A stretch of 64,000 nt of DNA from Eledone cirrhosa (taxonomy: Eukaryota): positions 287,804,001 to 287,868,000 of the forward strand of contig OZ024741.1 of the NCBI GenBank assembly GCA_964016885.1, given 5' to 3'. A program made the position numbers and the translations under genes. Shown in pieces: positions 15,338-63,368 of the stretch. The first letter of the stretch is position 1. The number at the start of each line of letters is the position of its first letter. Below the pieces are notes generated by a model, which was not told the DNA's origin, ran no database searches, and saw only the letters and a program-made list of their open reading frames with translations.

Positions 15338-15423
<86 letters not shown>

Positions 15424-20011: not shown

Positions 20012-20057
<46 letters not shown>

Positions 20058-20262: not shown

Positions 20263-20310
<48 letters not shown>

Positions 20311-20691
20311 ATGTACATACACGTACATATACACACACATATACATATAATTAGACATACTATATAGACACAGATATATATAACCACACACATACACATG
20401 CACATATACAACACTTACATACTAATATACATACAGATATACACATACATAGCTATATATACACACAAATATATACAGACTTACATATATACACATACAG
20501 ACAAATACTTACGCATCTATATATCGGTATATACATACAAACACCACTACACTATCACACAACTTAGAAATACAAAGAGAAAGGTATATACCTATACACA
20601 CCTACATATACAAATAGAAAAACATATAGATATATATATATATATATATATATACATACACACACATATACACATAGATATATATATATAA

Positions 20692-20733
<42 letters not shown>

Positions 20734-20973
20734 CAAATACACATACATACACATACAGATATATACACATACATACATGTACACACACATAGAAATATTT
20801 ACGCATACACACATACACACATACATATACAGTCATACACACACATACACCTACACGAACATACACATACACATATATAAAGATATATATATACACACAC
20901 ACACACGCAACACATACACACATACACATATATATAAAAAATAAATAATAAAGATATATACATATATATATAT

Positions 20974-21026
<53 letters not shown>

Positions 21027-21101
21027 CACCTAAATATACATACACATACATACACACATACATAGACATACATGTACATACATATACGTACATCGATATA
21101 C

Positions 21102-21132
<31 letters not shown>

Positions 21133-21406
21133 TAGACATATAGATACATACACACACAACTTACATACACACATATATATACATGTATATTCATACATAG
21201 AATTAGATATATAATCATACATACATATGCACTTACTTATACTCATATATACAAATACATACGCATCCATATATGCGTATATACATAAAAAACCACTACA
21301 ACCTCACTTAACTCAGACATACAAATAAAAATAATAATAAAAAGGCATATGTATATACATACACATACGCATTAATAGAGATATATATATACACACATAC
21401 ATACAC

Positions 21407-21437
<31 letters not shown>

Positions 21438-21710
21438 TATATATATATATACACACACATACACTCATACATATATATATATATATACACATAGATACCC
21501 ACACACTCATACCACCATAAATACACATACAAACACCCACATATACATATATATACACACGTATATATATATATATATATATACACACACATAAAAAACA
21601 GACATGCACATATATATATATTTTTTTACACTTATATATACACATATTATATACACATACACAACCTCACTTATACACACATACACATAAGTTATATTAT
21701 AATAATAAAG

Positions 21711-21759
<49 letters not shown>

Positions 21760-21849
21760 CATACATACATATATATACATACATACATATAAACATATAC
21801 ATACATAAATACACACATACGAATATAGACATATATTCACACATAGACA

Positions 21850-21902
<53 letters not shown>

Positions 21903-23567
21903 ATATACACAGACACATATACACACTCACATATATATATGTGTGTGTGTGCACACACACATATATACACACATACACATATATACACATAAACACATAC
22001 ATATGCATACATGCACACACACACACATATATCACATAGATACGAAGATAGACATATAAATAGAGAGACATACATATATATACAACACACATACACACAC
22101 ATACATACACACGCATATACATATACATATATATATACATATACATATTCCTATATATACATGCATACATATATATACACATATATACACATACATACAC
22201 ATATACGTACACACATTCACATACACATACATATATACATGCATATATACACATATATACATACATACACACACTCATATATACATACACAATCTTACAT
22301 TCATATTTGCATGCGCATATATGTATTTTTATATTTAGATATAAATACCCAAACCTATATAGACACCTACCTACATATATATTCATACATAGACGCTTAC
22401 AAATACAGATGATAATAGTATGGGGGAAAGGGGGGGTTTGGAGAAGGGGATCAAAGTAAATATATGTTTCAAGAAACATAGAATATTTTCCGTATCTTTA
22501 TCCAATGTATGTTCTTACATATTTTCAGTGTTAGGAAATACAACAAACAAGAACTAAGGCAAAATCTATGCATCTCAAAATAAACAAGTATACCATTAAT
22601 CATATGTTAACTAAACCAAAGATAGTTAACATATTGATTTCTAAGGTGTAAATTAGTTAGGTTTATAATATTTGAAGCAGAATTTTGAAGTTAAACAGTA
22701 GTAGAGTATTAATTACAGTATAACTAAATTAAAGTTAATAACGTTATGGTATCAATATTAGGAAATGAATTTAGTAATAGGGAAAAAAAACACAAATAAA
22801 AATAAAATAAAGTATTACATCGGTAGTAGAATATAAATTATAGGTTAACTAAATTAAAAATTATATATTTATTTCAATAGTATATGTTAATTAGGTATAC
22901 AATACATAAAGCAGATATTGTATTTCATCAATAGCATAATATAATTATAAGCAAATAGAAATCAAAATTAATACGCATACATATACATATACATACACAT
23001 ACATATATACATATATATACACACATATATATATATATATACACATATATACACATATACATACACACACACACACATACACATACACATATACATATAC
23101 ATATCTTTTTCAAAAAATTGCATAGAATATATTAACTAGGTATATATCCAAAACACATCCCATTCTATGATTACATGACATTCTGCAATTCGTCTGTATA
23201 AGGATACTAATTTTAAGCAAATTAAAATTAAAATTTTTAGGTTGATTAAAACTAAAACCAAATTATAAATATATTTCTAAAATGTATATTAATTAGGTCT
23301 ATAATACTAAAAATTATTTCTCTGTCATTGGATACACGATATTATTTTGTTATATTTTATCTGTAAAAGAATTATAATAAAAAGGTTTAAATAAATTAAA
23401 ATTAATCTATAAATTAAATTACTAAGTATATATTAGTAATATTTAAAGGTTTTTCACAATTTATGATTACATAATATTTTATATTCTCATCTGTAATAAA
23501 ATTTTAATTAAATTAAATTTATAGGTTAACTAACATTTAAATTAAATTAATTTCTAAAATAATGTTA

Positions 23568-25199
23568 TTAATTAGGTTTATAATATTTAAATGTTTTTTT
23601 TAGTTTATGATTACACGATATAATTAATTCCTGTCGTTTATTTAATAAGATATCCTTAGACTTCATTATTTCAAATAGTTCTTGGGAACATAATCTACAT
23701 TCATTTCTATTATTTTGATAAGGGGTGGCTCTTTTGAGCACACTCCAGGTCAAATCATATTTTATATTCTTATTTTTATAACTATTGATTTTTTCTGCTA
23801 GAGATGTTGTATTAGCCAGTGCGGCATTTTAAAAAAAATGCTTGTGGGTATTAAACCTTGTCTTAAAATTGTTAGAGGTAGCTCCTATATATGAGCAAAT
23901 AGAATCTTTAGTTTTAACATTACATTTATAGACTATGTTGTTAACAAGACAATTCCCTTTTAATGGGCAGTTTGCTTTGTTTCTACAGTTACATCCTTTC
24001 GTTAATTCTGTATTTGAGGAGATATTATGGTTAATTTGATGTACTGGTGGTATACTTATGGTTTTCTTACATTTATATGCATTATATGCACTTATATTTT
24101 GTTTTATGTTATTTGTTGTAGAGTATGAGAATTTAACTGTAGACCTATTTAAGATTTGATGGTATTTGTGGTTTGGCGGGAAGTTTTTCTCAAGGATATA
24201 AAAAAAATTTTTAGCAATATTATCCTTAACTTGTAAATTAAAAGGAGCATTATACCAAGTAACCCGTCTATTACGGTTTCTATGTTGTTTATTATTTTTA
24301 TTATTTTTATAGGTTGTATCGTGATTTTTACTAGGAGGATTAATGTTAATGATCTCACCACAACTATTTTTAGTTATATTTGTAGATTTAGGTGTTTTAT
24401 CCTTTTTATTAGGAGTTTTATTATTAATATTTATTATAGTTGTATGATGAGTATTTTTTTGAGAGTTACTATACTTTATATTAGAAGATTTGGTATTTTG
24501 GGGTATAGTGTGGGTGGCATTTAGGTGTGTACTTTTCATTTGGTGTTTGTTGGTAATATTATGTTGTATGCTTTCAGTATTTTTAGTAGAAGGTATATAC
24601 TCTAATCTATTTTTGTGGCCACTTCTATCTAGAGCTTCGTTATAGAAGGTCGCATTTTTATCAAATACATCTTGGTTAGAAGAAAGGTTAGAAATTCTAA
24701 GTGATATATTATATGCAAGGTTTTTAAGGATAGATTTAGGGTGATTAGATTGTGAGTGTATGTAATGTAAGTTTTGGTTAGGTTTATGGTAAGGTTGGTA
24801 GATACCCGTAGCTAAATCTAAAGTTATATCTAGGAAATTTACTACTTTACTTGTTTTTTCAAAAGTAATATTAAGATTATAATAGTCTTTAAGGAAAGTT
24901 CTAATATGTTTTTTGTTTTTTTCAATTTCTGAAAGGCTAAGGTTGTTAGAAAGAAGAAGACAGTCATCACGATATAAACCACCTTTGAGGTGGGGAAAAG
25001 AGGCATTTATGTTGAAAAGGAGAAAGAGGCCCACAAGATCAGTAATTTGGGCGGAATCGCTTGAACCCATAGTAATATCAAAAAGATTACTGTATGTGTT
25101 TCTGGTCCAGTATTCATTCTGAAATTCAATAAGTGTTAGTCTAGCATGTGTAATAATGTTAATGTCATCCAAAGTTAAGTTAGATATATTAGTTAACAT
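23568..25199 (-). pseudogene. PLE RT (5'-truncated) plus GIY-YIG endonuclease, with a frameshift at a poly-T run
   Basis: FDITMGS, GLYRDD, VNFLDITL, CNC-X5-CPL-X3-C linker, NIVYKC..YIGAT, CRLC..E, CNH. Confidence 0.9.
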
Positions 25200-26787
25200 T
25201 ATTACACATGCTAGACTAACACTTATTGAATTTCAGAATGAATACTGGACCAGAAACACATACAGTAATCTTTTTGATATTACTATGGGTTCAAGCGATT
25301 CCGCCCAAATTACTGATCTTGTGGGCCTCTTTCTCCTTTTCAACATAAATGCCTCTTTTCCCCACCTCAAAGGTGGTTTATATCGTGATGACTGTCTTCT
25401 TCTTTCTAACAACCTTAGCCTTTCAGAAATTGAAAAAAACAAAAAACATATTAGAACTTTCCTTAAAGACTATTATAATCTTAATATTACTTTTGAAAAA
25501 ACAAGTAAAGTAGTAAATTTCCTAGATATAACTTTAGATTTAGCTACGGGTATCTACCAACCTTACCATAAACCTAACCAAAACTTACATTACATACACT
25601 CACAATCTAATCACCCTAAATCTATCCTTAAAAACCTTGCATATAATATATCACTTAGAATTTCTAACCTTTCTTCTAACCAAGATGTATTTGATAAAAA
25701 TGCGACCTTCTATAACGAAGCTCTAGATAGAAGTGGCCACAAAAATAGATTAGAGTATATACCTTCTACTAAAAATACTGAAAGCATACAACATAATATT
25801 ACCAACAAACACCAAATGAAAAGTACACACCTAAATGCCACCCACACTATACCCCAAAATACCAAATCTTCTAATATAAAGTATAGTAACTCTCAAAAAA
25901 ATACTCATCATACAACTATAATAAATATTAATAATAAAACTCCTAATAAAAAGGATAAAACACCTAAATCTACAAATATAACTAAAAATAGTTGTGGTGA
26001 GATCATTAACATTAATCCTCCTAGTAAAAATCACGATACAACCTATAAAAATAATAAAAATAATAAACAACATAGAAACCGTAATAGACGGGTTACTTGG
26101 TATAATGCTCCTTTTAATTTACAAGTTAAGGATAATATTGCTAAAAATTTTTTTTATATCCTTGAGAAAAACTTCCCGCCAAACCACAAATACCATCAAA
26201 TCTTAAATAGGTCTACAGTTAAATTCTCATACTCTACAACAAATAACATAAAACAAAATATAAGTGCATATAATGCATATAAATGTAAGAAAACCATAAG
26301 TATACCACCAGTACATCAAATTAACCATAATATCTCCTCAAATACAGAATTAACGAAAGGATGTAACTGTAGAAACAAAGCAAACTGCCCATTAAAAGGG
26401 AATTGTCTTGTTAACAACATAGTCTATAAATGTAATGTTAAAACTAAAGATTCTATTTGCTCATATATAGGAGCTACCTCTAACAATTTTAAGACAAGGT
26501 TTAATACCCACAAGCATTTTTTTTAAAATGCCGCACTGGCTAATACAACATCTCTAGCAGAAAAAATCAATAGTTATAAAAATAAGAATATAAAATATGA
26601 TTTGACCTGGAGTGTGCTCAAAAGAGCCACCCCTTATCAAAATAATAGAAATGAATGTAGATTATGTTCCCAAGAACTATTTGAAATAATGAAGTCTAAG
26701 GATATCTTATTAAATAAACGACAGGAATTAATTATATCGTGTAATCATAAACTAAAAAAAACATTTAAATATTATAAACCTAATTAA
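25199..26787 (+). pseudogene. Inverted duplicate of the PLE RT plus GIY-YIG
   Basis: Protein identical to the minus-strand copy from NIITHARL onward; same frameshift at ~26517-26524. Confidence 0.9.
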
Positions 26788-28454
26788 TAACATTATTTTA
26801 GAAATTAATTTAATTTAAATGTTAGTTAACCTATAAATTTAATTTAATTAAAATTTTATTACAGATGAGAATATAAAATATTATGTAATCATAAATTGTG
26901 AAAAACCTTTAAATATTACTAATATATACTTAGTAATTTAATTTATAGATTAATTTTAATTTATTTAAACCTTTTTATTATAATTCTTTTACAGATAAAA
27001 TATAACAAAATAATATCGTGTATCCAATGACAGAGAAATAATTTTTAGTATTATAGACCTAATTAATATACATTTTAGAAATATATTTATAATTTGGTTT
27101 TAGTTTTAATCAACCTAAAAATTTTAATTTTAATTTGCTTAAAATTAGTATCCTTATACAGACGAATTGCAGAATGTCATGTAATCATAGAATGGGATGT
27201 GTTTTGGATATATACCTAGTTAATATATTCTATGCAATTTTTTGAAAAAGATATGTATATGTATATGTGTATGTGTATGTGTGTGTGTGTGTATGTATAT
27301 GTGTATATATGTGTATATATATATATATGTGTGTGTATATATATGTATATATGTATGTGTATGTATATGTATATGTATGCGTATTAATTTTGATTTCTAT
27401 TTGCTTATAATTATATTATGCTATTGATGAAATACAATATCTGCTTTATGTATTGTATACCTAATTAACATATACTATTGAAATAAATATATAATTTTTA
27501 ATTTAGTTAACCTATAATTTATATTCTACTACCGATGTAATACTTTATTTTATTTTTATTTGTGTTTTTTTTCCCTATTACTAAATTCATTTCCTAATAT
27601 TGATACCATAACGTTATTAACTTTAATTTAGTTATACTGTAATTAATACTCTACTACTGTTTAACTTCAAAATTCTGCTTCAAATATTATAAACCTAACT
27701 AATTTACACCTTAGAAATCAATATGTTAACTATCTTTGGTTTAGTTAACATATGATTAATGGTATACTTGTTTATTTTGAGATGCATAGATTTTGCCTTA
27801 GTTCTTGTTTGTTGTATTTCCTAACACTGAAAATATGTAAGAACATACATTGGATAAAGATACGGAAAATATTCTATGTTTCTTGAAACATATATTTACT
27901 TTGATCCCCTTCTCCAAACCCCCCCCCTTTCCCCCATACTATTATCATCTGTATTTGTAAGCGTCTATGTATGAATATATATGTAGGTAGGTGTCTATAT
28001 AGGTTTGGGTATTTATATCTAAATATAAAAATACATATATGCGCATGCAAATATGAATGTAAGATTGTGTATGTATATATGAGTGTGTGTATGTATGTAT
28101 ATATGTGTATATATGCATGTATATATGTATGTGTATGTGAATGTGTGTACGTATATGTGTATGTATGTGTATATATGTGTATATATATGTATGCATGTAT
28201 ATATAGGAATATGTATATGTATATATATATGTATATGTATATGCGTGTGTATGTATGTGTGTGTATGTGTGTTGTATATATATGTATGTCTCTCTATTTA
28301 TATGTCTATCTTCGTATCTATGTGATATATGTGTGTGTGTGTGCATGTATGCATATGTATGTGTTTATGTGTATATATGTGTATGTGTGTATATATGTGT
28401 GTGTGCACACACACACATATATATATGTGAGTGTGTATATGTGTCTGTGTATAT

Positions 28455-28513
<59 letters not shown>

Positions 28514-28603
28514 TGTCTATGTGTGAATATATGTCTATATTCGTATGTGTGTATTTATGTATGTATATGTTTATATGTATGTATGTATATATATGTATGT
28601 ATG

Positions 28604-28650
<47 letters not shown>

Positions 28651-29228
28651 CTTTATTATTATAATATAACTTATGTGTATGTGTGTATAAGTGAGGTTGT
28701 GTATGTGTATATAATATGTGTATATATAAGTGTAAAAAAATATATATATATGTGCATGTCTGTTTTTTATGTGTGTGTATATATATATATATATATATAC
28801 GTGTGTATATATATGTATATGTGGGTGTTTGTATGTGTATTTATGGTGGTATGAGTGTGTGGGTATCTATGTGTATATATATATATATATGTATGAGTGT
28901 ATGTGTGTATATATATATATATATATATGTGTATATATATATATATATATATGTGTGTATGTATGTGTGTATATATATATCTCTATTAATGCGTATGTGT
29001 ATGTATATACATATGCCTTTTTATTATTATTTTTATTTGTATGTCTGAGTTAAGTGAGGTTGTAGTGGTTTTTTATGTATATACGCATATATGGATGCGT
29101 ATGTATTTGTATATATGAGTATAAGTAAGTGCATATGTATGTATGATTATATATCTAATTCTATGTATGAATATACATGTATATATATGTGTGTATGTAA
29201 GTTGTGTGTGTATGTATCTATATGTCTA

Positions 29229-29259
<31 letters not shown>

Positions 29260-29334
29260 GTATATCGATGTACGTATATGTATGTACATGTATGTCTATG
29301 TATGTGTGTATGTATGTGTATGTATATTTAGGTG

Positions 29335-29383
<49 letters not shown>

Positions 29384-29623
29384 ATATATATATATGTATA
29401 TATCTTTATTATTTATTTTTTATATATATGTGTATGTGTGTATGTGTTGCGTGTGTGTGTGTGTATATATATATCTTTATATATGTGTATGTGTATGTTC
29501 GTGTAGGTGTATGTGTGTGTATGACTGTATATGTATGTGTGTATGTGTGTATGCGTAAATATTTCTATGTGTGTGTACATGTATGTATGTGTATATATCT
29601 GTATGTGTATGTATGTGTATTTG

Positions 29624-29656
<33 letters not shown>

Positions 29657-29969
29657 GTTTTTCTATTTGTATATGTAGGTGTGTATAGGTATATACCTTT
29701 CTCTTTGTATTTCTAAGTTGTGTGATAGTGTAGTGGTGTTTGTATGTATATACCGATATATAGATGCGTAAGTATTTGTCTGTATGTGTATATATGTAAG
29801 TCTGTATATATTTGTGTGTATATATAGCTATGTATGTGTATATCTGTATGTATATTAGTATGTAAGTGTTGTATATGTGCATGTGTATGTGTGTGGTTAT
29901 ATATATCTGTGTCTATATAGTATGTGTAATTATATGTATATGTGTGTGTATATGTACGTGTATGTACAT

Positions 29970-30017
<48 letters not shown>

Positions 30018-30222
30018 ATATATATATGTATGTGTATTTGTATGTATATGTGTATATGTATGTATGTGTGTATATGTATATGTTTATATATGTGTGTATA
30101 TGTATGTTCTTAGTGTGGATGTGTGTATATGTATGTATGTGTTTATATATGTGTGTATATTTATGTATGGATATGTGTGTGTCTATGTGTATATATATGT
30201 ATGTTTTTGTATATATATATAT

Positions 30223-30266
<44 letters not shown>

Positions 30267-30940
30267 ATATATGTGTATATATATATATATTTATTTTCTT
30301 GATATATTTCTTTTTTCTTTTTTCTTTTTTCTGTTTTTCTTTCTATTCTTTCCTCTTTAATGTTTTATTTATTATATTTTATTGTTTTATTTTTTTATTT
30401 TTCTTAGTTTATAGATACATTTATATTAGGCAGTCTGCTCAGACAGTTGAATACTGACCCCTCCCCCCCCCTCCCACCTAATTTCTGTATCTTGATCTAA
30501 AAATGTGTGTGCCAGTGTTTTATGTGAGTGAATTAATATCCATGTGCTTATGATTTTATATCCACATATATAAATGTGAGTGGGGGTGTGTGTGTGTTTG
30601 TATGTTCGTGGTTATGTGTATATTTATGCATATACGCGCGTGTATGTGTGATTGTACGGATATGTGTGAGTATGAAAAAATATATTTATATACTTGACTT
30701 CATAAGTGTCAATAAGCATCTTATCTGCGCATTGTAAGCTTACAGAGACATTAACCTTGAAATTTTGTATTTGCATCCATCCTTTTAGTATGCGTATACA
30801 AATTATACATACATTTTTGTAAAATATGTGTAAGGGTTTTACATGTATATACACACACCGAACTGCATTTAACCCTTTGTGTTTTCATTGGTCAATTTTG
30901 AACTGAAATTTTGAATTGTTGTTATTATCAATAAATATAC

Positions 30941-36148: not shown

Positions 36149-36524
36149 CGCCCATATACTCGCATGCGCGCACATACAGACACACAGGCAAACACACAAA
36201 CGTGGACAAACATTCACAAAGAAATTAATAGACACTTATGCACAACTGTTCAAAGATACATACATATACACACATGCCTACACACACTCTCTCACACACG
36301 CACACACACACACACATACATACATACATACATACATACATACATACATACATACATACATACATACATACATACATACATACATACATAATTCATAGTC
36401 TATAAATGGCTGCGTTAGCTGGCACCTTCAAAATTTGCAAAACATTCTTGCGATTCAAGGGATGACAATTTCTTTTCTTTTACAACTCGAAATTAAGAGA
36501 AAGAGATAACATACATACATAAAA

Positions 36525-38773
36525 TAATAACATCATCACAGATAAACAAGCAGCTGGAAAGAAAGAGGTTTGGGGATGTGCTGAACAACTCCTCATCAAC
36601 AAAACTGCGATGTCGGAGGTGCGACAACTTAGGAGGAATATGACTACAGTCTGGCTGGACTACAGGAAAGCTTTCGATTCTGTTCCCCACTCTTGGATGA
36701 TAGAGGCCCTCCAACTTGCTAAAGTCCCAGACATTATTGTCAGAGCCATAGAAAGGCTGTCTTCTTCTTGGGCTACTATTCTAAGGTTAAAGACAGAGAA
36801 GGAGGACTCTATTTTCACTGATAAAATAAAATATTGCAGGAGTATATTTCAGGGAGACAGTCTCTCTGTGATATTATTCATCTTGTCATTAAACCCCTTG
36901 TCCTTTCTGCTCAAGAAATGTGAGGGATGCATCATTGGCTCACAGGAGGACAGAAATACGAACCTAACCCATAATTTCTTTGTGGACGATCTGAAAGTTT
37001 ATGCCAAAAACATGGATGTAATGAAGAAAAATCTTGACCTGGTTACAACGTTCTCAAAGGATATAGGAATGGAGTTTGGCCAAGATAAATGCTCATACAT
37101 GACTGTAAAGCGGGGAAAAACAACAACCCAATCTAGCAACATTGTCTTCAATGTCCTAACTGTTTCACCGATATCTGATGAGGACTGCTACAGATACCTG
37201 GAGATAGATGAGAACATAGCCTATAATGGTATCTGTAATAAAGAACGCGTAACCAGATAATACTACACCCGATTAAGAAAGATCTGGTCATCGGAACTCG
37301 CTGCGCAAAACAAAACAGTGGCTCACAATGTGTTTGCTGTGCCTGTCCTAACACCAACGTTTGGAATAATCATCTGGACGATAGACGAAATCCGAGCAGT
37401 TGATGTTGGAACTCTAAAAATACTGAACAACACTGGAAACTTCCACATCAACAGTAACATAGATCGCCTTTACTTGAAACGTAAGCAGGTAGGCAGAGGC
37501 CTAACATCAGTCCAGACAACATTTGAATGTCGCATCATATCTCTCCCACAACATCTACGAACCTCGAAGCGTAGGAGCCCGCTTCTCGAGCAAGCCTATC
37601 TGCATGAAATAGATAAGATCATGAGAGTTGGGAAGGAACTCCTCGAGAGATATTCCCTGTGTGATAATCAAAAACTCACACCCAGGGATGTCGCTCAGCA
37701 GTATCGCAGTGAATCCATGGATGACAAACTGCATGCCTATCAGCAAAAAATCATGCATGGATATGTTGCCAGGAAGCTCCAGGGTGAGAGTAATATAGAT
37801 AAGGAAAGTAGTCTATCTTGGACCAACAACCGCTATATTGGCTCCCACTTTGAAGGAAACGCTTTTGCAATCCAAGAACAGGAGATTAGCACGAAATACC
37901 TGATTCACAAAAGAGATAGGGATGCAGGCAAAACACCTAGATGTGATAACAAGTGCAGACTCTGCAGAACTAACATCGAGGATATCACCCATGCCATCAG
38001 CAGCTGTCCAAGATGTCATCGCGGTACTATCTACCTATGAGGCATTATGTAGTGGCCAAGACACTGTACAATGCAGTTCGTAAAAAAGATAGCCCCGATA
38101 ATAAACACATTAAAAGCTACAGCAATGTGGAAGACATCCATGTACATAATATGAAAGAGTACTGGTGGAATGTTCCAGTAAAAACCCCAATAAAATGCAG
38201 GCATACAGACCAGATATTATGATATGGGACAGGGAGAAGAAAACATGCACAGTAGTGGAAATTAGCTGCCCAGCAGATGCCAATATAATATCAAAGATTA
38301 GTGAAAAGAAGAACATTTATGCAGAACTGATGAGAAATCTGCAGATAATCCACCCTCATTACACCTTCAGATTTATGCCTGTGATTATTGGGGCACCGGG
38401 GTATGTTAGTAACTGTCTCAATACAAATCTTGAGACGCTGGGATTCACAGGAACAGAAAGAACACAACTAGTTAGGAAACTACAAGTACAATCCATTAAT
38501 GGAACAGTAAAAATATGTAAAACATTCCAAATATTTTGCATCTAATAACTGCATATACACATATACAGATGCAAAGCATATACATATGCACACATACAGC
38601 TCAAAACATCCACATCCACACATACAATAACATCCATATCTACACATGCATGCATACATACATATCTACCTAGTTGATGTTGCGGAAATTCCAATGAGAG
38701 AGTCTTGTGTCTATGTTAGAAACCGACTCTCTCTCTATTGGTAAAACTTTGTGAAATTATAAAACCAGAAGAA
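36525..38773 (+). mobile_element. 5'-truncated R4/Dong-like non-LTR retrotransposon (RT, CCHC, restriction-like endonuclease), degenerate
   Basis: WLDYRKAFDSVPH, IFQGDSLS, FFVDDLK, CRLC..EDITHAISSCP, RPDIMIWD..VVEISCP; stops and frameshifts; (CATA)n at both ends. Confidence 0.9.
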
Positions 38774-48993: not shown

Positions 48994-49115
48994 TATATAT
49001 TAATAAGAGGAATTCCAACTTTGTCTGATTTACTCGTTTTATTTACAATCCTTTAAAATGTTTAATGGTGTTATAATGAAATAGTATGATAGAATATTAA
49101 ATTCTAAGTGTTAAT

Positions 49116-49154
49116 TGAACAAGTACTTTCATGCTTTCGCAATCTTCAGGTTCA
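49116..49154 (-). ncRNA. Minimal hammerhead ribozyme (mutated inverted copy at 53360-53398)
   Basis: TGAAC-CTGAAGA-T-TGC GAAA GCA-T-GAAA-GTAC-TT-GTTCA. Confidence 0.85.
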
Positions 49155-49642
49155 TAATATGTGGTGACAGTCAAGTTTGCAATTTTCAACTGTAATGAGA
49201 TGGGTAAATTTTGTACCTTATATACAGTGAAAAGTGGCTCCAGAATGCTAAATCTTGCAAACTGTATTTCGACCAATCGGTGTGTAGTTTCACTGAATAA
49301 CTAAAGCTGATTGGTTTAAGCGTCACGGCTGGTTGAGCATGTCTAACGACCAATAATTAATCCTATCCAAAGCGTCAATTGTTTTACTATTTTTAGAAAT
49401 GATGAAAATAGCATTTTCTAGTAATCATCATCATCAACATCACTTTTATTATTATTATTATTGTTGTTGTTGTTGTTGTTGTCAGTGGTCGTAGTCATAG
49501 TCATAGTAGAAGTAATACCCCTAAGCGTTATTATTGTTCATTTAGCTTGGGTTTGAATTTATCAATAAAATTCTTTTCTTTGATTTTTCTCTTGATTTCA
49601 CTTGGGCTGATAAAATTCTTTTCTTTCATTTTTCTCTTGATT

Positions 49643-51790
49643 TCATTTGTAGAATGGGAATATTATAAATATTCCCTGACCACATGTTGCTAGATGGTTA
49701 CTTAGGGGTATCTGACGGACATTTGGGTCTCTGATTTGCTGACGGTGTACCCGTGCACGTTCCGATAGTGCATTTCCAGTTTGACCGACATATAGTTCTT
49801 CACAATTCGGGCATTTAATGCAGTAAATTAGATTTCTGCTTTTGCAGTTCATATTTGCATTTGGGAATATTTTTCCAGCTTTTGTTTTCATATATTGACC
49901 GGCGTGTATGGATTGACATGTGCCGCATCGACTATCATTGCATTTAGATACAGTGAATGATTGGTCTTTGTTGTTAAGGTCAAACTTTGCTTTTGTTAGT
50001 AATTGCTTCAAATTTTTTGGCTGTCTTTTACTAAGAGTCAAAGATCGATCTGTGATTAAGCCTTTTAATTCATTACTTTGAGCAATGATCGGTAGGTTTG
50101 CTTTGGCAGTGTTGAAGATGTTCTGATGACATGGGTTGTGTGTCATTATAAATGGTATGACCAGTTCTTGGTTTCTTCTTCCTTGGGTTGTCCTAAGTTG
50201 TTGTATAGGTATTTTTATAGCCCGCTGTATGCCATTTTCTATAAGTAGAAATGGGTATTTTTGTTTGAGCAAAAATTCTCTTAGTTCTGTTAGGCGTTTG
50301 TACCTGGTATTCGTATCTTCTACAATGGTACAAATTCTTCTGGCTAGGCAGTATGGGATGTTGCGTTTTGTATGAGGTGGATGGCACGACTTAAAATTCA
50401 GATATTGATGGGTGTCTGTGTGTTTATAATATATATCCGTGGTAATGGTGGTGTCGTTTTTGATTATCATTATATCTAGGAATGGTAATTTGGTCCTACT
50501 CATCTCTTTTGTGAATTGGAGAGATGGGTGTAGGTTATTCAGGAGGATATTGAACTCATCCAGAGTATCTAGAGATTCTGTCCAGATGATGAAACAGTCG
50601 TCAAGGTATCTCTTTCAAGATTTTTCAATGTACTTTCTAAAGTCAGTACTATATTTTTCCTCTATTTCTTGGTAGAGTTGTTGTTCTAAGTATCCCATTA
50701 CAGAGTTCGCGTAAACGGGAGCAAACTTCGTTCCCATCGCTGTGCCTCTAATTTGGATGTAATTCTTTCCATTGAAGAAGAAAGTGTTGTTTTCCAGAAT
50801 AAGTTTAACTGCGTCTAATATAAATGGCGCTGTGAATCTGATGGGAATCACTTCTCTATGTTTTTCCACCCAGTATTGAACCGCCTTTATTCCTAAATCA
50901 TGTGTAATGTTGGTGTAAAGGCTTACCACATCAAAACTAAGTAGAAGTGAATTCGTTTCCGTGGTTTTGGGAAGATGGGACAGGAAGTCGATATCATCCC
51001 GGATGAAACTGGGTATGTGAATACATAGTGGTTTCAAAATAATGTCAACAAAATTGCTTAGACGGTGGGTGGGCATGTTGGACCAACTATAATAGGTCTA
51101 AGTTTTAAGTCTTTTGGGTGTAGTAATTTAATGTACTTACTGTTTTGTTCTCTTACTGCCAGTTGTATTTCTTTTGACTTATGAACTTTCGGTAGGCCAT
51201 ACAGGTTGCTGGGTTTCGGCTCAAAATTGGTGATGTAGTCTCTTTCCTTATCAGTAAGTGAGTTGTGGTATTTTGAAGCCAGGTTGTTGATCTTCATCAT
51301 GATGTTGTGGTCTATATTTGACGGTATTTCATGATAGAATGTTGTGTCTTTCAGTTGTTCCTCAACCAAATCCTTGTAGTATTCAGTATCCATTATAACA
51401 ACTGCACCCCCTTTATCGGCTTGTTTAATTATTATTGTTTTATCATTTTGTATACGTTTAAGTGCAGACATTTCTGATTTGTTAATGTTTGGCCTAATAT
51501 TAGTATTACGTCTAAGAGGAAATTTAGACAGGATGTCAATGTATTGGTCGAGATAGATATTTCTTCCTTTTGGCGGAGTGAAATTTGATTTATTCTTTAC
51601 TAGTGATTCATCACTCTCATTACTTTTATCAGCGAAGAATTCTACAATACGTAATTTTCGACAGAATTCTTGGGTATCCTCCTTCAGTTCTTGGTGGTTG
51701 ACTGTTGGAGTCGGTGTGAATTTCAGTCCTTTTGACAGAATTTGCATTTCATCATTGTCAAGATCTTTTTTAGATAAATTAATTCTTTTA
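49643..51790 (-). pseudogene. PLE reverse transcriptase plus GIY-YIG endonuclease (frameshifted)
   Basis: LSKGLKF, ADKG, YGLPKVHK, LRPI, SFDVVSLYTNI, GTAMG, RYLDD, PFLDI, C..C..C linker, NLIYCIKC..LYVGQTG. Confidence 0.9.
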
Positions 51791-51794
51791 GGAT

Positions 51795-53141
51795 CTATGT
51801 GTACAGTTGTTTTGGGTATGTTTCCTCCTGGAGTTTTTCTTTTTCCGGTTTTTGTTGTCCTGACGTTAAAACATGGATTTTTCTCTGTTCAGGATTTATA
51901 TTCCTGTTGGTGTTCGCTTGATGAACTTTTGGTCGTGATATTATATTTGGTTTCGTTATGTATTTTGTCCTATTTTTGGTATTATGTATATTATTTTTCC
52001 TGTTAGCATTATTTTTAACAATCTGGGGAAATGACCTAGGTTTGCTTTCAGGTTTAGATCGTCTTTTCGCCCAGTTTCTTGTGGGCAATCTCTGTTGAGA
52101 TCTTGAGAGTGATCTGGTTATTCTACGTTTTGTTTCCACATTCCTTGTTGGTAGTCTCTGTTGAGATCTTGAGAATGATCTCCTGGTTTTACTACTTCTC
52201 ATGGTCTGGTCAAAGGAATATCTATCGTGTTTGTGTTTTTTGTTCATGTTGTGTGCGATAGGGTGTTTTTGTAGAAAAAGCGAAGAGTTATTACCGTAGT
52301 TCTTCTTTGATACAAGGTAAGGTGAGTGTTTGTGTTGGCACGTGTTCTGGCGTATGTTGTGTTGGTGAGATTGTCCACTTTTAATGCTTTTTCTCAGGGT
52401 TCCAGAGTCTTTACCGTAATTTGCAGCATATTCGTCGAGAAATAATTGTTTCTGCTGCCATACCTTTCTTGATTTGTTTTCTTCTTTTGAGATATCTCTG
52501 ATCCATAGTTCTCGTAGTTTTTCAGCTATAATACCAGTCGTTAGCTTTGAAATTTCAACTTCAATTTGGTCATCAACTGCTTCATATTTGGCTTTGTAGC
52601 GGGATTGTTTACATTGAGAAATGGAGATGTCGGTCCTGAATTTTGTCAATGTAAGTTCCCATCGGAGTTTTGTTTCTTCTTCTGGTTCGCCTGCAATTTC
52701 TATAATTAGGTATTTACGAGGGAGTATGGATGCCGTTAGAGAGAGCCATTTTGAATGTGTTTCGACATATTTTTCGCATTTGTATGCTTTCCAGAAGTTT
52801 TGTTTTCTTATGTTAAGAAATTTTTTCCATGTCTTCCACATTTCTTTTCTTATTCGATGTGTTTTGTTTTCCAAATTTCTTTCGTTTAGTTCTGACATCC
52901 AAGGGGGTTGTGGTAGGCTTTCTCTTGTATCTTTGGTAACCGTTGGTATAATTTCAGCTAAATTCTTAATTTCAGAGTTTATATGTTCAGTTATAAGTTT
53001 TCCGTCTGTAGATTGTTTTTCTATTTCCTTTAAAATAGAGGATTGTGTGTCAATCATCGTGATAAGTGTTGATAATTTCGATGATATCTCCTTTAGAATT
53101 CTTTCTGATTCTGTTGATTTCATTTGTTGCTTTCCAGACAT
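51795..53141 (-). CDS. Long N-terminal extension or upstream ORF of the PLE (coiled-coil plus basic region)
   Basis: 448-aa open frame just upstream of the RT; homologous to 56904-58067. Confidence 0.7.
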   Translation of the reverse strand: MSGKQQMKSTESERILKEISSKLSTLITMIDTQSSILKEIEKQSTDGKLITEHINSEIKNLAEIIPTVTKDTRESLPQPPWMSELNERNLENKTHRIRKEMWKTWKKFLNIRKQNFWKAYKCEKYVETHSKWLSLTASILPRKYLIIEIAGEPEEETKLRWELTLTKFRTDISISQCKQSRYKAKYEAVDDQIEVEISKLTTGIIAEKLRELWIRDISKEENKSRKVWQQKQLFLDEYAANYGKDSGTLRKSIKSGQSHQHNIRQNTCQHKHSPYLVSKKNYGNNSSLFLQKHPIAHNMNKKHKHDRYSFDQTMRSSKTRRSFSRSQQRLPTRNVETKRRITRSLSRSQQRLPTRNWAKRRSKPESKPRSFPQIVKNNANRKNNIHNTKNRTKYITKPNIISRPKVHQANTNRNINPEQRKIHVLTSGQQKPEKEKLQEETYPKQLYT

Positions 53142-54072
53142 GTTGGCATATACACAATAGGAATATATATATATAGAGATAGATAAATATACACGCGTGT
53201 GTTTGATTGTGTATAGAAGATTATATTAATAAGAGGAATTCCAACTTTGTCTGATTTACTCGTTTTATTTACAATCCTTTAAAATTTATAATGGTATTAT
53301 AATGAAATAGCAATTTTCAACAGTTGAAAATTGGTATTTCATTATAATACCACATATTATGAACTTGAAGATTGCGAAAACATGAAAGTACTTGTTCAAT
53401 TAACACTTAGAATTTAATATTCTATCATACTATTTCATTATAATACCATTATAAATTTTAAAGGATTGTAAATAAAACGAGTAAATCAGACAAAGTTGGA
53501 ATTCCTCTTATTAATATAATCTTCTATACACAATCATACACACCCGTGTATATTTATCTATATATATATATATATATAGGAACAAGTAAGACCCCGACGG
53601 CTGAGCTCAAGCCGTTTCGACGGCTAATTCTGGACTGAATGAAAATTTATTCAGGTATTTAAATAGCCGAGCTTATCAGGGGTAATTCCATATATGGTCA
53701 AAGAGATAATCACCAGGATTGGTCACATCACAAGTTAGTAGTAAATCTGTGATGGCAAATTGGTAGGGGAAGGGGTAGCTGAACCTGCCGGTAGGAGAAA
53801 AAGGGAGAGGGGTGGAGTAGACCCATTCATGCGTTGGTAGTGCCGGCTACAGCTGGGTGTGAGGTCAAAGAAGATACTGGGGAGGGGGAGGGGGAGGAAG
53901 TCGAAACGGTAAGTAAAACAAAGAAGGGTAAAACTATAAAAAGTACTGAGAGAGAAAAAAAAAATAAGCAAAGTCTGGTTACTAAGACTTAAGTCTCTCG
54001 CTATTGCTAGGCTAAAGAAATACATAAATAAATAAATAAACAAATAAGTGAATAAAAGAATAGATAAATAAA

Positions 54073-54107
<35 letters not shown>

Positions 54108-54233
54108 TGAAGACAAACATAGAATATTCGAAAATATTCTGTATGTTTATAATAAACATTTTGAAGACCTAATCGCTATAGAATAGAATACGTCACGTAT
54201 TACAATTTGAGATTCTCGATAAAAGCAAGGGAA

Positions 54234-54276
54234 GTAACCTACGCGTTTCATTCTTATTAGAAATCATCAGGATTAC
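54234..54276 (-). ncRNA. Minimal hammerhead ribozyme
   Basis: GTAATC-CTGATGA-T-TTCT AATA AGAA-T-GAAA-CGCG-TA-GGTTAC. Confidence 0.9.
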
Positions 54277-54545
54277 ATATCCAGTGCTTTTATCGAGAAT
54301 GACACAGCTAGAGACTTATAGAATACTTAGCTGTGTACAGGAACTGGTTTGAAAGAGCGGTTGCCGGTCCGGCAGAAATTAGAATTTGGATTTAATGCTC
54401 TGAAATAGCGATATATATGTGAAGACAAACATAGAATATTCGAAAATATTCTGTATGTTTATAATAAACATTTTGAAGACCTAATCGCTATAGAATAGAA
54501 TACGTCACGTATTACAATTTGAGATTCTCGATAAAAGCAAGGGAA

Positions 54546-54588
54546 GTAACCTACGCGTTTCATTCTTATTAGAAATCATCAGGATTAC
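54546..54588 (-). ncRNA. Minimal hammerhead ribozyme
   Basis: Identical to 54234-54276, 312 bp away. Confidence 0.9.
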
Positions 54589-56326
54589 ATATCCAGTGCT
54601 TTTATCGAGAATGACACAGCTAGAGACTTATAGAATACTTAGCTGTGTACAGGAACTGGTTTGAAAGAGCGGTTGCCGGTCCGGCAGAAATTAGAATTTG
54701 GATTTAATGCTCTGAAATAGCGATATATATGTGAAGACAAACATAGAATATTCGAAAATATTCTGTATGTTTATATATATATATAATGAAGAATAAAAAA
54801 TAAATAAAAATAAACTAGGTGGGACGGAAATAAAGGGACCCTTATACGAGGTATAAGTGCGTGTATCGTACGGTGACGGGTCAACAAAGGGGGGGGGCCA
54901 AAATACTAAAGAGACTACCACGAAATAATAAAGGTTTCTACCCCACGGGAGGACGCCGTCCGTGCAATTTATGCTCGGAGGAAACTTTACAAATGCTGTT
55001 TTCGACGGACCAACTCCTAAACAAGAAAGATGAACTGGTTACTGCATGTAAACACCGATTACGTAGGACTTACCTCGCCCTCAAACCCCATAATGACCCG
55101 GGGGGGGTAGACTAGGGCTATAACACCCCACTTGCCTATTTTGTAAGGGGTAACCCCTGCTTGCCAATGGAGACGTAAGATCTTCTTTTACATTTTTTAT
55201 CGCTTCCTCTATATTTCCTCCTTCCCCCCATCCCTCCCTAGTCCTTCTACCTCAGTTCCCTTTCTTTGTCGTCGTCTTTTTCTCGCCCACCCGAGGTATC
55301 CCCTCGGTCCCTTGTAGCTTCAGCACCACCACCACCCTCCCTTATTCTACGATAGATTTGGCTGACTCCACTTTTTATAGAAGAGGTGTTAGACTTCGGA
55401 TACTTGCCCCCTTCTCCGACCGCTGTACCTTTTTTCCGTGCCTTCTATATTTCTTAGTGGCATCTTTGCTTTAATTTCTCGTTTATCCAGTATTTCTTTC
55501 CTCTTTTTCCCTTTTTTTTTTTTTTTTTTTTGGAGGGGGGGGGGGTTTCTGTATTAATTCTCCGTTCTTTACTTTTACTTCGTACGATCTTTCATGTAGC
55601 TTGTATAAGACTTTCTGTTTCGTGGCGGTACCCTTAGAGTTAGCACGAGTATTTTTTTTTTTTTTTTTACGGGACCCTGAATTATATTCTCGTACTAGTT
55701 TACTTTCTTGCTCTGGGTGGTTGCTGGCCCTGTGATTGGGGTAGAAACCTTTATTATTTCGTGGTAGTCTCTTTAGTATTTTGCCCCCCCCCCCCCTTTA
55801 TTGACCCGTCACCGTACGATACACGCACTTATACCTCGTATAAGGGTCCCTTTATTTCCGTCCCACCTAGTTTATTTTTATTTATTTTTTATTCTTCATT
55901 ATATATATATATTTTTTTTTTTTTTTTTTTTTTTTTGTAATTTATTTATCTATTCTTTTATTCACTTATTTGTTTATTTATTTATTTATGTATTTTTTTA
56001 GCCTAGCAATAGCGAGAGACTTAAGTCTTAGTAACCAGACTTTGCTTATTTTTTTTTCTCTCAGTACTTTTTATAGTTTTACCCTTCTTTGTTTTACTTA
56101 CCGTTTCGACTTCCTCCCCCTCCCCCTCCCCAGTATCTTCTTTGACCTCACACCCAGCTGTAGCCGGCACTACCAACGCATGAATGGGTCTACTCCACCC
56201 CTCTCCCTTTTTCTCCTACCGGCAGGTTCAGCTACCCCTTCCCCTACCAATTTGCCATCACAGATTTACTACTAACTTGTGATGTGACCAATCCTGGTGA
56301 TTATCTCTTTGACCATATATGGAATT

Positions 56327-56420
56327 ACCCCTTGATAAGCTCGGCTATTTAAATACCTGAATAAATTTTCATTCAGTCCAGAATTAGCCGTCGAAACGGC
56401 TTGAGCTCAGCCGCCGGGGT
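56327..56420 (+). ncRNA. Hammerhead ribozyme, U3-A8 variant with a full stem III (inverted copy at 53591-53683)
   Basis: ACCCC-TTGATAA-stem II-GAAA-CGGCT TGAGCTC AGCCG-(T/C)C-GGGGT. Confidence 0.7.
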
Positions 56421-56903
56421 CTTACTTGTTCCTATTACCCACTCTACTACCCTAAGTATTGAGTACTTTGGTGCGTTATGGCCCACCTGATTCCTTACCA
56501 CATTTCCTTCGTTATATAAATATATATATATATATATATATTTATACATATATATTATATATATATACATATATATTATATATATATATATATATACATA
56601 TATATTATATATATATATGTATATATATTATATATATATATATGTATATATATTATATATATATATATACATATATTATATATATATATATACATATATT
56701 ATATATATATATATATATATACATATATTATATATATATATATGTATATGAATGTATATATAGTGTATTTTGCAATATACTGTATACTTAATTAAAATCA
56801 TTTCGAAGACCTTACGCTATTATTTTAGAGTAGTGACAGTCTCACTTACTTTAATTTTCAGCAAACAGGGGAGATAAAGCTGACAGAGCTCTGTTTCGCA
56901 CTT

Positions 56904-58067
56904 TTAGACTCTTGCGTGGCCGTTGCTGTATGGGGGTCTGGTTCTTCTGTTGATTCGTTCAGTATTCATGTGTCTTTGATTTTGTCTCCGGTGATTGTTC
57001 TTGGTGTTATGGCAGTGGTTGTATCTGGTTCTGGTGTTGAGTATTGGGTCTGTATGTAGTTGTGTGTTTGGGGTTACCCAATATCTGGTTGTTGTTGGTT
57101 TATTGTGTGTGGGTGCTTCATTTCTTGTGTTGTTGTATTTTCCTGAGTTCTGGGGTTTCCTATGGGTTTGTTTTCTGGGTTTTATTTGGTCTTTCCCATA
57201 GTTATCTTCATATTCTTGAAGCCATTGAGTTCTTGACTCCAAGATTTTCTTTGATTTTAACTCCTCTCTAGTTGTATCTGTCTGCCATAGGTTAAGGAGT
57301 TTTTCACGTACATTGCCGCTGCTTCTTTTGTTTATTTCCTCTTGGATGGTGGTGTCGCATTTTTCAAATTTCTCTTTGAATTTTGGCACTCTTAGGCGGA
57401 GTAGGGTGATTTCGGTCTCAAGTGTTTGGAGTGCTAGATTTAGTCTTGTTGCAGTTTCTTCCTTTGATTCCGATGGTATTTCTTTAATTCGGAATTTTCT
57501 CGGGAGGATAACTGGTTCCTTGCTACGCCATATTTCGTATGTGTCTGCTAGGTTTTCACTCCTCAAGGCTTTCCAGTATGCCTGTTTCCTTTGATTTAAT
57601 AATGGGTTCCAAATGTTTTTCATTTGGTTTCTTTTTCTGTAGGCTTCTTTTTCTAGGTTCAGTTCATTCCATTCTTTGAATGCATTATTGGTGATGGAGT
57701 TCTGTTCATGTGTAGCTATTTCAGGAGAAAAGGTTTGTTCTTGTTTTTGCCGGCCTGTAATTAGTGAATCAAGTTTTTCCCTATAGCTGCGTGTTTGTTG
57801 TTCCATTTCTTGTACGGCATTCGTAAGGGAATCATATTTATCTATTATTATGGTGAGTTTTTCTGATATTTCCTGTAGTAGTGTATCCGATTTGAGGGAT
57901 TCAGTAGAGGATTTTGAACGTGTGTTAGCCATTCTGTCTTGTACAAGGGGATAGAATATTGGAAAATGTGTGTAATCCTTGGTACAGTTAGGTATATTAA
58001 GACAGGGGGGAAGAAAAAATGGCTTCACTTGTGCTTTCAACAAATTTATTTTCTTCACAAAATCCAA
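56904..58067 (-). CDS. PLE N-terminal extension homolog without a downstream RT (likely start MANTRSK at ~57932)
   Basis: Shares LLQEISEKL, RKQAYWKA, ILPRKF..EI..E..EET..R and EY..NYGKD with 51795-53141. Confidence 0.65.
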   Translation of the reverse strand: MDFVKKINLLKAQVKPFFLPPCLNIPNCTKDYTHFPIFYPLVQDRMANTRSKSSTESLKSDTLLQEISEKLTIIIDKYDSLTNAVQEMEQQTRSYREKLDSLITGRQKQEQTFSPEIATHEQNSITNNAFKEWNELNLEKEAYRKRNQMKNIWNPLLNQRKQAYWKALRSENLADTYEIWRSKEPVILPRKFRIKEIPSESKEETATRLNLALQTLETEITLLRLRVPKFKEKFEKCDTTIQEEINKRSSGNVREKLLNLWQTDTTREELKSKKILESRTQWLQEYEDNYGKDQIKPRKQTHRKPQNSGKYNNTRNEAPTHNKPTTTRYWVTPNTQLHTDPILNTRTRYNHCHNTKNNHRRQNQRHMNTERINRRTRPPYSNGHARV

Positions 58068-58777
58068 AAAGAATTTTTCTTAAAAAAATTATTTTATAAA
58101 TTAAGTTGTTGGTTGTTGGTTAGGTCTTAGGAGTTCTTGGTTAACGTAGGAGGTATTGTTTCGTTTTTAGAAAGACCTTTCACGCTGAGGTGCGCTTGTC
58201 AAACTGATGTGTATGTGGTGTGTTATTCTATATATAGGGATTTAACATGTCTGTGGTGTGGTGGGGGTTTCTTTTCTCCCCCTTTAATAAGTGCATGGGT
58301 GTAGGTGTGTTGAAAAAGTGTTCATAGCAGTAATGAGTTGAGACGGTGAGTAGGGTTGGGTGGGGAGAAATGTAGCAAGTGCAGCCTGCCCCGGTCATTC
58401 TCGAAAAATTCCTTTATTCAGGGGAAGAAGCTTTTAGTATTGCTTTTGTGTTGAGAATGGTCACAGGCAAATCGCACCTGTCAAGTTTGTGAATAATTAT
58501 TTTTTTCTTCTTTTTTTCCTGAAGAATTTTTCTACGTCCATCCCAAAGTTAGTCCTTTGTTCAACACACACATATGTGCGCATATACGTACATACACACA
58601 CGGGCATATGTAGGAATATATAGGCACACACCATCAATCACACACCCATGCACAAATACATCCACATACATACACAAAAACATATAGAGACACATATAAA
58701 AACACATATATACATACGTACACACACGAATATGTACTCATACCTCCACATGGGTATATATATATATATATATACAT

Positions 58778-59273: not shown

Positions 59274-59583
59274 ACACACACACATATGTCCGTATATATT
59301 CCCCTCCGTTCACACATACATGCATACACACACACACATACACACATACATCTATATATATATACACATATAAAGAGAGAGGCATACACACCTCAGCGTG
59401 AAAGGTCTTTCTAAAAACGAAACAATACCTCCTACGTTAACCAAGAACTCCTAAGACCTAACCAACAACCAACAACTTAATTTATAAAATAATTTTTTTA
59501 AGAAAAATTCTTTTGGGATTTTGTGAAGAAAATAAATTTGTTGAAAGCACAAGTGAAGCCATTTTTTCTTCCCCCCTGTCTTA

Positions 59584-59585
<2 letters not shown>
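57995..59585. mobile_element. PLE pseudo-LTR region with inverted copy
   Basis: ~195-bp inverted arms 57995-58192 and 59389-59585 upstream of the ORF. Confidence 0.65.
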
Positions 59586-59624
<39 letters not shown>

Positions 59625-59653: not shown

Positions 59654-59962
59654 CAAAATACTGAGTGCATATCTTACATAGTGCATATCTTCGAACTTCT
59701 CTTAAACTAATCAACTATATGCCAAAAATCAACAGACACATTCACAAAAAAACACACTCACTCACACACTCGCGCGCAACCATACATACACATATACACA
59801 CAGAAAAACACACACACATATATAAATATATGTGTTTATGGTTGCGCGCGAGTGTGTGAGTGAGTGTGTTTTTTTGTGAATGTGTCTGTTGATTTTTGGC
59901 ATATAGTTGATTAGTTTAAGAGAAGTTCGAAGATAATTGTAAGATATGCACTCAGTATTTTG
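59654..59962. repeat. ~310-bp fold-back or MITE-like palindrome
   Basis: CAAAATACTGAGTGCATATCTTACA...TGTAAGATATGCACTCAGTATTTTG; ~125-bp arms. Confidence 0.75.
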
Positions 59963-60157
59963 AATCTGTCTAGAGAATTCTCTAAATCTTTGTCACTTAG
60001 TAGAACCTTAATGAATTTAGCTTTTAAAGAATCTCCCTTTCCTTTAATTCTATCTACCATGACTGACCACCCCACTGATCTTATAGACATCTGTTAGCTT
60101 AAGAGAAACTTAATGACAAGGAATGGTATGCCATCCGGAACCTGTTTATAGAATTCT

Positions 60158-62824
<2,667 letters not shown>

Positions 62825-63368
62825 CGAAGCGCTGAACGAGTGTGACTTTTTAGTCCAGCCAGCGACTTGAAAACTCTGGTACAAACACTACACTTGTGAC
62901 AATTATTGACACATAGTGCTGGGCCCATGGTACCATGTGAGGACAAGTGCAGAGAGATCTCCAGATATAAAGCAATGCCTGTGCCGTGAAGCTTTTATAG
63001 TGAGCAAAGGCACTGCACAAAGCCAGTCCCACTCTCTTAACCAAGATGATATTTACCAAAAGAAGAACAAGTCAACATCATTGGATACCATCAGGGTTGC
63101 AGGTGTTATATCAGAGTTTTCCTTCTCCTAGAATTCTGCCTTGACAAAGGCTAAGGGGTCATCTCTCCCGGTGATTTTGGATGGCCATTGACTCTTAAGA
63201 GCTCCTTTGCCCTTTGACAGGTTTTGTTTTTAGTCCTGCAGGATGTCCAAAGTCACCCTCCTCACCAAGAAACCTTGGTGGGGTTGCCAGTTTAGTCGCC
63301 AACGACCCGACCATGAGACAGGTTGTACTGGGATACATGTTACCAGTAGCACCAACTGGTGACCTGAC
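62825..63368 (-). mobile_element. Probable LINE (RTE-like) 5'UTR fragment
   Basis: GC-balanced structured leader ..CTAAACTGGCAACCCCACC..ACTAAAAAC..; next to (TA)n; no clear ORF. Confidence 0.4.

Follow-up and report, generated by a model that had tools for sequence, protein, structure and literature searches.

Paired start sites and PLE-type insertions in a young non-LTR retrozyme family of Eledone cirrhosa

Introduction

Non-LTR retrozymes have been described from metazoans such as coral, mussel and axolotl (Cervera and de la Pena 2020, PMC7229834; review PMC7761336; Li et al. 2026, 10.64898/2026.07.22.740005). In the accessible text of these sources they are non-coding, low-GC tandem units, 150-450 nt long, that each contain a single type I hammerhead, fold stably and are dispersed as dimers to multimers. 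The same text proposes an involvement of PLEs on the grounds of co-occurrence and pLTR similarity, and for Xenopus retrozymes the preprint gives 8 of 9 dimers as being without cleavage (10.64898/2026.07.22.740005). No publication on retrozyme insertion ends was found in our search, most subscription papers and preprint supplements being outside its coverage.

According to the available parts of the PLE literature, EN+ PLEs leave inverted copies with a one-ended tail of 30-40 bp and a bias toward (TA)n (PMC8557442, PMC3846280). The PAc enzyme, as the accessible text of its description has it, cleaves both target strands and extends each of them, initiates at two positions inside the RNA and probably acts as a dimer according to prediction, with unprocessed RNA as the main template in vitro and the ribozyme dispensable (PMC11167929).

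The window analyzed here is a stretch of 64,000 nt of the E. cirrhosa genome, and its array of 312-nt units is a young copy of a non-coding mobile element that is very abundant in this genome. The family adds a new and very young member to the non-LTR retrozymes, and it resembles those of coral, mussel and axolotl, as far as their accessible descriptions go, in the low-GC, non-coding tandem unit with its single type I hammerhead, in the dispersal as dimers to multimers and in the stable fold. It differs from those descriptions, to the same extent of text, in that its insertions have two arms, fixed starts and a tail (PMC7229834, PMC7761336, 10.64898/2026.07.22.740005). As in the accessible accounts of EN+ PLEs, the arms are inverted and 5'-truncated, the tail is one-ended and the target AT-rich; as in EN+ PLEs and PAc, two starts ~35 nt apart lie downstream of the hammerhead and the terminal repeat contains a TATA-like run. 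Unlike EN+ PLEs, the retrozyme has no ORF, and the entire element corresponds to a terminal module that is repeated. The available text on N-terminal EN+ PLEs describes them without canonical hammerheads, whereas the retrozyme family has one (PMC8557442). A further parallel is MRC1 of Chlamys, a non-autonomous dependant of a PLE with multicopy head-to-tail insertions; in that account the 3' end of the Chlamys elements resembles the autonomous partner (PMC8557442), whereas for the retrozyme no partner was found among the two PLE families compared. We interpret the window array as a one-arm insertion from a non-autonomous, young retrozyme family with a PLE insertion signature, in which a PLE RT/GIY-YIG enzyme has likely copied a single 312-nt RNA unit repeatedly, probably as a circle.

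Loci sampled

Exact motif matches in the 3.0-Gb genome numbered 1,837 for the subfamilies of the window and 11,067 for a younger 310-nt subfamily, giving roughly 13,000 units; the units per locus among the listed matches lead to an estimate of ~2,000 loci genome-wide. Ninety-nine loci were studied, comprising the window, 37 top-scoring loci, 35 position-ordered loci on C1, 15 long arrays and, for the 310-nt subfamily, its first 11 loci. The 35 loci on C1 together with 5 of the 37 top-scoring ones make up an unbiased, position-ordered set of 40. L099 and L100 have their junctions in common and probably go back to a single event that was duplicated, and L148 and L149 are one locus. L061 and L079, with tiny inverted pieces, were scored as one-arm, and the third arm of L055 was excluded from the pairing count. 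Phases within the unit are counted from 54108 (phase 1), which places the ribozyme cut at phase 133/132.

The longest arm had 22 units among 39 scored candidates for long arrays, none of which is a giant master array, and 27 units in the 310-nt subfamily set. The 312-type motif shows a forward-strand excess (1110 vs 727 and 1188 vs 849, or 340-380 matches) that is absent on the first half of C1 and may reflect a long single-orientation array. In the contig set of X1 the family has a depth of ~2e5, which fits the genomic copy number and is uninformative on expression; the majority alleles there pointed to the larger 310-nt subfamily. Single contigs of low depth in the sets X4-X6 were left aside.

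The array and its unit

The array has a period of 312 and spans 2.14 units with 0 mismatches over the 356 comparable nucleotides (54108-54463 against the sequence 312 nt downstream). The two-plus identical units of the original prediction were thus recovered, and its reading of the array as a young, concatemeric non-LTR retrozyme is supported. The unit has 34% GC (107/312). No ORF of at least 120 aa was found within the array, and the unit is thus without the RT and GIY-YIG ORF of an autonomous PLE; it is a low-GC, non-coding tandem unit in the range of 150-450 nt, with no LTR and apparently no PBS or PPT. The array had also been placed as starting at the TA run of the unit, away from the cleavage site. 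It does start away from that site, but not inside the ATATATAT run: its first letters are TGAAGAC, and the G after the run is skipped. Position 54108 is the RNA 3' end and presumably the start of the cDNA (start A). As a separate observation, phase 255 (window 54362) is the site that varies most within arrays (8 loci) and is not a CpG; it closes a GCCGG hairpin, and a hot spot of quasi-palindrome repair or a base modification of the template may lie behind the variation.

Table 1. Features of the retrozyme array and its surroundings in the window
Feature	Position	Strand	Remarks
Broken autonomous PLE copy	48996..53577	minus	RT and GIY-YIG; hammerhead of its own at 49149, with U.U
Host: two-arm insertion, PLE family 5'/pLTR region	53579..56518	plus	inverted arm 53579-54945, sense arm 54944-56518
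(TA)11 target, start-A side	54086..54107		sequence
Retrozyme array	54108..54775	minus (RNA sense)	units 54108-54419, 54420-54731, 54732-54775
Hairpin just inside start A	54115..54148	minus	block ~phases 270-72 conserved in sister families
16-bp helix extending stem I	54212-54227 / 54285-54300	minus	repeat at 54524-54612
Type I hammerhead copy 1	54234..54276	minus	sequence and motif scan; predicted cut GUA, 54240/54239
Start B position in unit 1	54378..54394	minus	phases 271-287; outer end of the second arm elsewhere, unused here
Type I hammerhead copy 2	54546..54588	minus	sequence and motif scan; predicted cut 54552/54551
(TA)7, truncated side	54772..54785		first 4 nt common to unit phases 41-44 (microhomology)
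Sister retrozyme fragment	56749..56905	minus	66% like unit phases 1-130; also begins at A in (TA)n

An intact hammerhead had been claimed for each unit, and the motif is indeed present in both full units on the minus strand, the third array piece of 44 nt being without one. The ribozyme consists of stem I (GUAAUC/GGUUAC, 6 bp), the core CUGAUGA, stem II and then GAAA-CGCG-UA. Stem II has a U.U at its base followed by UUCU/AGAA (4 bp) and the loop AAUA, and helix III is a single base pair capped by a palindromic CGCG loop. An Rfam search of the whole window at the gathering score returned 0 families. The enclosing 16-bp helix, likewise predicted, is present and forms in the MFE structure, in which the ribozyme core takes a shifted pairing. 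Folding is far more stable than in shuffled sequences (unit, z = -5.5; ribozyme region, z = -6.3), and in the circular fold the 16-bp helix would keep both ends of a cleaved monomer together.

The weak features of this ribozyme have counterparts in axolotl. In the accessible text of PMC7229834, HHR_Amex1 has the same 1-bp helix III with a palindromic tetraloop, HHR_Amex2 has the same U.U at the base of stem II, and both cleave better as dimers. Unlike either, the predicted E. cirrhosa ribozyme joins both features in one molecule; by analogy with these dimer-cleaving ribozymes, self-cleavage is predicted for it. The block around A and B, including the hairpin just inside start A, is conserved in four or five sister families while their ribozymes differ, which fits an enzyme-binding module, and we regard the hairpin block as the candidate for this role.

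Host site and neighboring elements

The array lies, as had been noted, inside a (TA)n of one PLE arm, and this (TA)n belongs to the host arm. It is native to the host: the opposite arm contains an empty (TA)6 site (55900-55911), and 11 other copies of the arm contain (TA)3-13. The sense arm of the host is ~75 nt longer at its outer end. Other copies of the host run on into an RT-like ORF, which we take to be that of a PLE from the motifs SDKTG, YRDDG and WFNPP; a Pfam search on the ORF pieces of the host PLE gave no match.

The sister retrozyme fragment in Table 1 represents a family with a ~319-nt unit, whose full copies carry a hammerhead with the core UUGAUAA (U3-A8 swap). This family has 1,731 first-look candidates and the same A and B ends (L103-L107). 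More related families were seen at L055, L089, L094, L104, L135, L042 and L062. The upstream frame of a second PLE family (window 56906-58200, 59389-59588) is 35% identical to the frame at 51795-53138 and ends exactly where the sister fragment starts, an abrupt junction that possibly arose by template switch or nested insertion.

Elsewhere in the window, an inverted pair of hammerhead motifs was found at 14325/14465 (window 14240-14560), and a ~430-nt tandem/inverted unit (14727, 15160 and 15569; window 14700-15600) has the same U.U and AAUA stem II. Single hammerhead motifs are located at 18807, 48233 and 8655, and an RT fragment at 36523-37260 (Pfam RVT_1, E 2.6e-18). Other large inverted structures edged by TA-rich repeats extend over 19984-30300, 59654-59962 and 60154-62828. 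Nested insertions of the two-arm type make the window a hot spot.

Two-arm insertions with paired starts

The copies are dispersed over many contigs at the 99 loci and are 95-100% alike, which, together with the empty site in the opposite arm of the host, attests to the mobility of the family. Two inverted arrays with their RNA 3' ends outward make up 71 of the 99 loci, and the other 28 have one arm. The window copy belongs to this rarer class; the typical two-arm form had been overlooked. The outer ends fall at two places in the unit, A at phases ~312-3 beside the TA run, and B at phases 271-287 (mode 277-279), ~35 nt apart and 132 and 168 nt from the cut, respectively. The two starts are used about equally (59 B ends vs 61 A ends) and are strictly paired: 65 of the 71 two-arm loci are A/B, none is A/A or B/B, and 6 have one arm at another phase. 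In the position-ordered set, A/B pairing was found at 25 of 27 two-arm loci. A (TA)3 or longer adjoins 151 of 164 outer ends of type A or B.

The inner ends are spread over the unit and are slightly overrepresented at early phases (chi-square p = 0.02). Of the 71 inner junctions, 44 have an overlap of 1-8 nt and 9 a fold-back longer than 8 nt; extra bases are present at 11, and the other 7 are blunt.

An inverted 5'-truncated second copy (71/99), a one-ended tail of 30-40 nt (65/71) and a (TA)n target (151/164) together form the PLE insertion signature, and PLE-type mobilization of the retrozyme family is very likely. The PLE had been named as the mobilizer from the start, and the two-arm insertions with their two fixed starts back this assignment; the other genomic copies proved to be multi-unit chains with two fixed outer ends, not random single units. 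The strict A/B rule points to an asymmetric enzyme dimer.

The permutation of the unit had been attributed to annealing of its TA run to cut (TA)n DNA. This explanation fails, as start B, which lacks a TA run and has a chance match of 0-5 nt to the target, is about as frequent as A. Among the A ends, 53 of 84, the window copy included, are without the base (G) that follows the TA run of the unit, which means either that synthesis begins just past the run or that a penultimate mismatch is tolerated. A sister family with a degenerate run has the identical start site in the sole A end read (L089). According to the accessible part of PMC11167929, the two internal sites at which a PLE enzyme initiates on its RNA in vitro have no homology to the target. 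We infer that the permutation point is set by the start site of the enzyme, and not by the ribozyme or by TA annealing; short TA pairing may help at A.

A candidate enzyme donor

The broken autonomous PLE copy next to the host is a two-arm insertion as well, and its ends are of the A type on one side and of the B type on the other. Its family served as a positive control, and A/B pairing was found at all 6 loci with both ends in view. Start A of this family lies ~128 nt past the cut, compared with 132 nt in the retrozyme. The family is young, with intact 775-codon RT-GIY-YIG frames in several copies (L181, L185, L188). Descriptions of canonical EN+ PLEs give a single ORF; the autonomous family was observed to have two conserved frames, the upstream one of ~448 codons from its first Met overlapping the 775-codon frame by ~90 nt. 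It was also observed that the whole 4.2-kb PLE unit is tandem in both arms at one locus (C4:322.58-322.60 Mb, 3 + 2 units).

Comparison of the terminal sequences of the retrozyme with those of two PLE families, out of 35,282 first-look PLE candidates in the genome, gave no significant match (shuffle p = 0.31 for the better candidate). Without significant sequence in common, the neighboring PLE is a candidate enzyme donor rather than an identified partner.

The template of the cDNA

If the template were a cleaved linear monomer, the cDNA would end 132-168 nt from its start. The arms cross the cut, so the template was continuous, either a circle or an uncleaved multimer. Crossing was found in 110 of 120 arms, twice or more in 70 of them (a set partly picked for full units), and in 56 of 64 arms of the position-ordered subset, twice or more in 33. 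These repeated crossings argue against the insertion of single PLE-type end pieces that became tandem later by local DNA duplication, a satellite birth in the terms of the accessible preprint text (10.64898/2026.07.22.740005). So do the very young, almost mutation-free loci L139, L141 and L147, where both arms are multimeric and of non-integer lengths. Very young arms of 6-10 units carry 0.1 private changes per unit, and being nearly free of mutations they must have been inserted long. Local duplication as the origin of the arrays is thus highly improbable, even though it agrees with the arm-specific periodic variants of L117, L118 and L120, which indicate some tandem growth after insertion, and with 18 partially shared variants found mostly in neighboring units.

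The cut site leaves no scar in the arrays. In 489 crossings, 1 indel event was found within 7 nt, compared with ~2 expected from a background of 47 events in 154,583 nt, and inner ends are as frequent near the cut as expected (9/120 vs 8.1). Template jumping generally leaves gained or lost bases, as in the work on R2. The lack of excess indels and stops at the cut therefore speaks against a cleaved monomer whose ends stem I and the 16-bp helix keep together, with the RT jumping the nick on every lap. Such a nicked template would explain the monomer bottleneck equally well, and in the modeled circular fold the helix would hold its ends together; we nevertheless consider it very unlikely.

Between a circular monomer and an uncleaved multimer, the distribution of variants is informative. 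Although 37 haplotypes exist, only one is present at each of 79 of 90 loci as judged from 24 diagnostic sites, and the other 11 loci are mixed at a diagnostic site. Eleven locus-private variants are fixed in every unit of 8 loci, and at L090, L116 (19/19 units) and L121 private variants are fixed in both arms. Older arrays have 0.75 minor variants per unit, and despite this no ordered patterns were inherited between loci or arms: only 3 of 190 non-fixed variants were found in both arms, and minor variants are common to 2 pairs of loci, compared with 1.2 pairs by chance. Unmixed haplotypes and scar-free crossings of the cut favor a monomer over an uncleaved multimer, and a circular monomer of the 312-nt unit is, in our assessment, a reasonably probable template.

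The same PLE machinery with both starts could instead have copied an uncleaved linear multimer of a homogeneous donor array, the ribozyme being a passenger as far as mobility is concerned. Counting against the circle, a homogeneous donor array transcribed into uncleaved multimers would yield the same haplotype pattern, and homogeneous arrays of 6-27 units are available as possible donors. The unexplained forward-strand excess may be an unseen long array, and the 4.2-kb units of the autonomous PLE form tandems too. The ribozyme has weak features in its 1-bp helix III and the U.U in stem II, the MFE shifts the pairing of its core, most Xenopus dimers showed no cleavage (10.64898/2026.07.22.740005), and the preference of PAc for unprocessed RNA in vitro, as given in the available text (PMC11167929), points the same way. 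A multimer would, however, need extra steps to fix new variants in all units and both arms (3 loci; 37 haplotypes), and ordered patterns would be expected to pass between loci or arms. Multimeric templates thus appear rather unlikely; the sample covers 99 of an estimated 2,000 loci (~5%), so that donors of the "private" variants possibly lie outside it. Two loci, L046 and L098, are mosaic arrays of mixed haplotypes, with 312- and 310-type markers in one unit of L046, attributable to a template switch between RNAs or to gene conversion.

Fixed alleles were checked for A-to-I editing. In the RNA sense, 13 of 38 are A>G and 7 of 38 are U>C (p = 0.11). A>G is enriched in fixed alleles relative to segregating variants (21/255), with polarity set by majority rule only, and private variants have no A>G excess (2/11). 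For a U6-type promoter, the unit was compared with the regions upstream of 4 of the 10 U6 loci fetched, without a significant match (all shuffle p > 0.12). The U6 snRNA genes themselves include a tandem cluster of ~30 at C19:31.78-31.84 Mb (L152-L159), with two kinds of upstream region.

Proposed mechanism and its meaning

The following cycle would account for the insertions. An array would be transcribed from the minus strand, and two hammerheads would cleave as a dimer; a host ligase, aided by the 16-bp helix, would then close the monomer. A PLE enzyme dimer would bind the conserved hairpin block and cut both (TA)n strands, one subunit beginning its cDNA at A and the other at B on the same RNA. 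Each cDNA would pass the former cut site, making 0.2 to ~10 laps, and microhomology or fold-back would then connect the far ends of the two cDNAs; in the window, one cDNA would have been joined directly to the target. Some long arms might extend later by unequal exchange.

A wider reading is put forward tentatively, as we give it less than an even chance: one PLE dimer on one ligated RNA circle of 310/312 nt, with its subunits committed to A or B, would spin concatemeric cDNA onto both ends of a (TA)n double-strand cut, and the insertions of autonomous PLEs, tandem, inverted and tailed as they are, would follow from this cycle too.

In the literature found, as far as its text was accessible, the return of animal retrozymes into DNA is proposed without demonstration. 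The new element here is family-wide genomic evidence for PLE mobilization with strictly paired starts, which was not found in print within the accessible text. The family has thousands of very young copies and displays in them the insertion signature of PLEs in full, and intact autonomous PLEs of the same geometry are present in the same genome. Two questions, which enzyme moves retrozymes and whether its template is circular, thereby merge into one in vitro assay. If the wider reading is true, circles would be the normal Penelope intermediate, and retrozymes would be the minimal parasite of Penelope.
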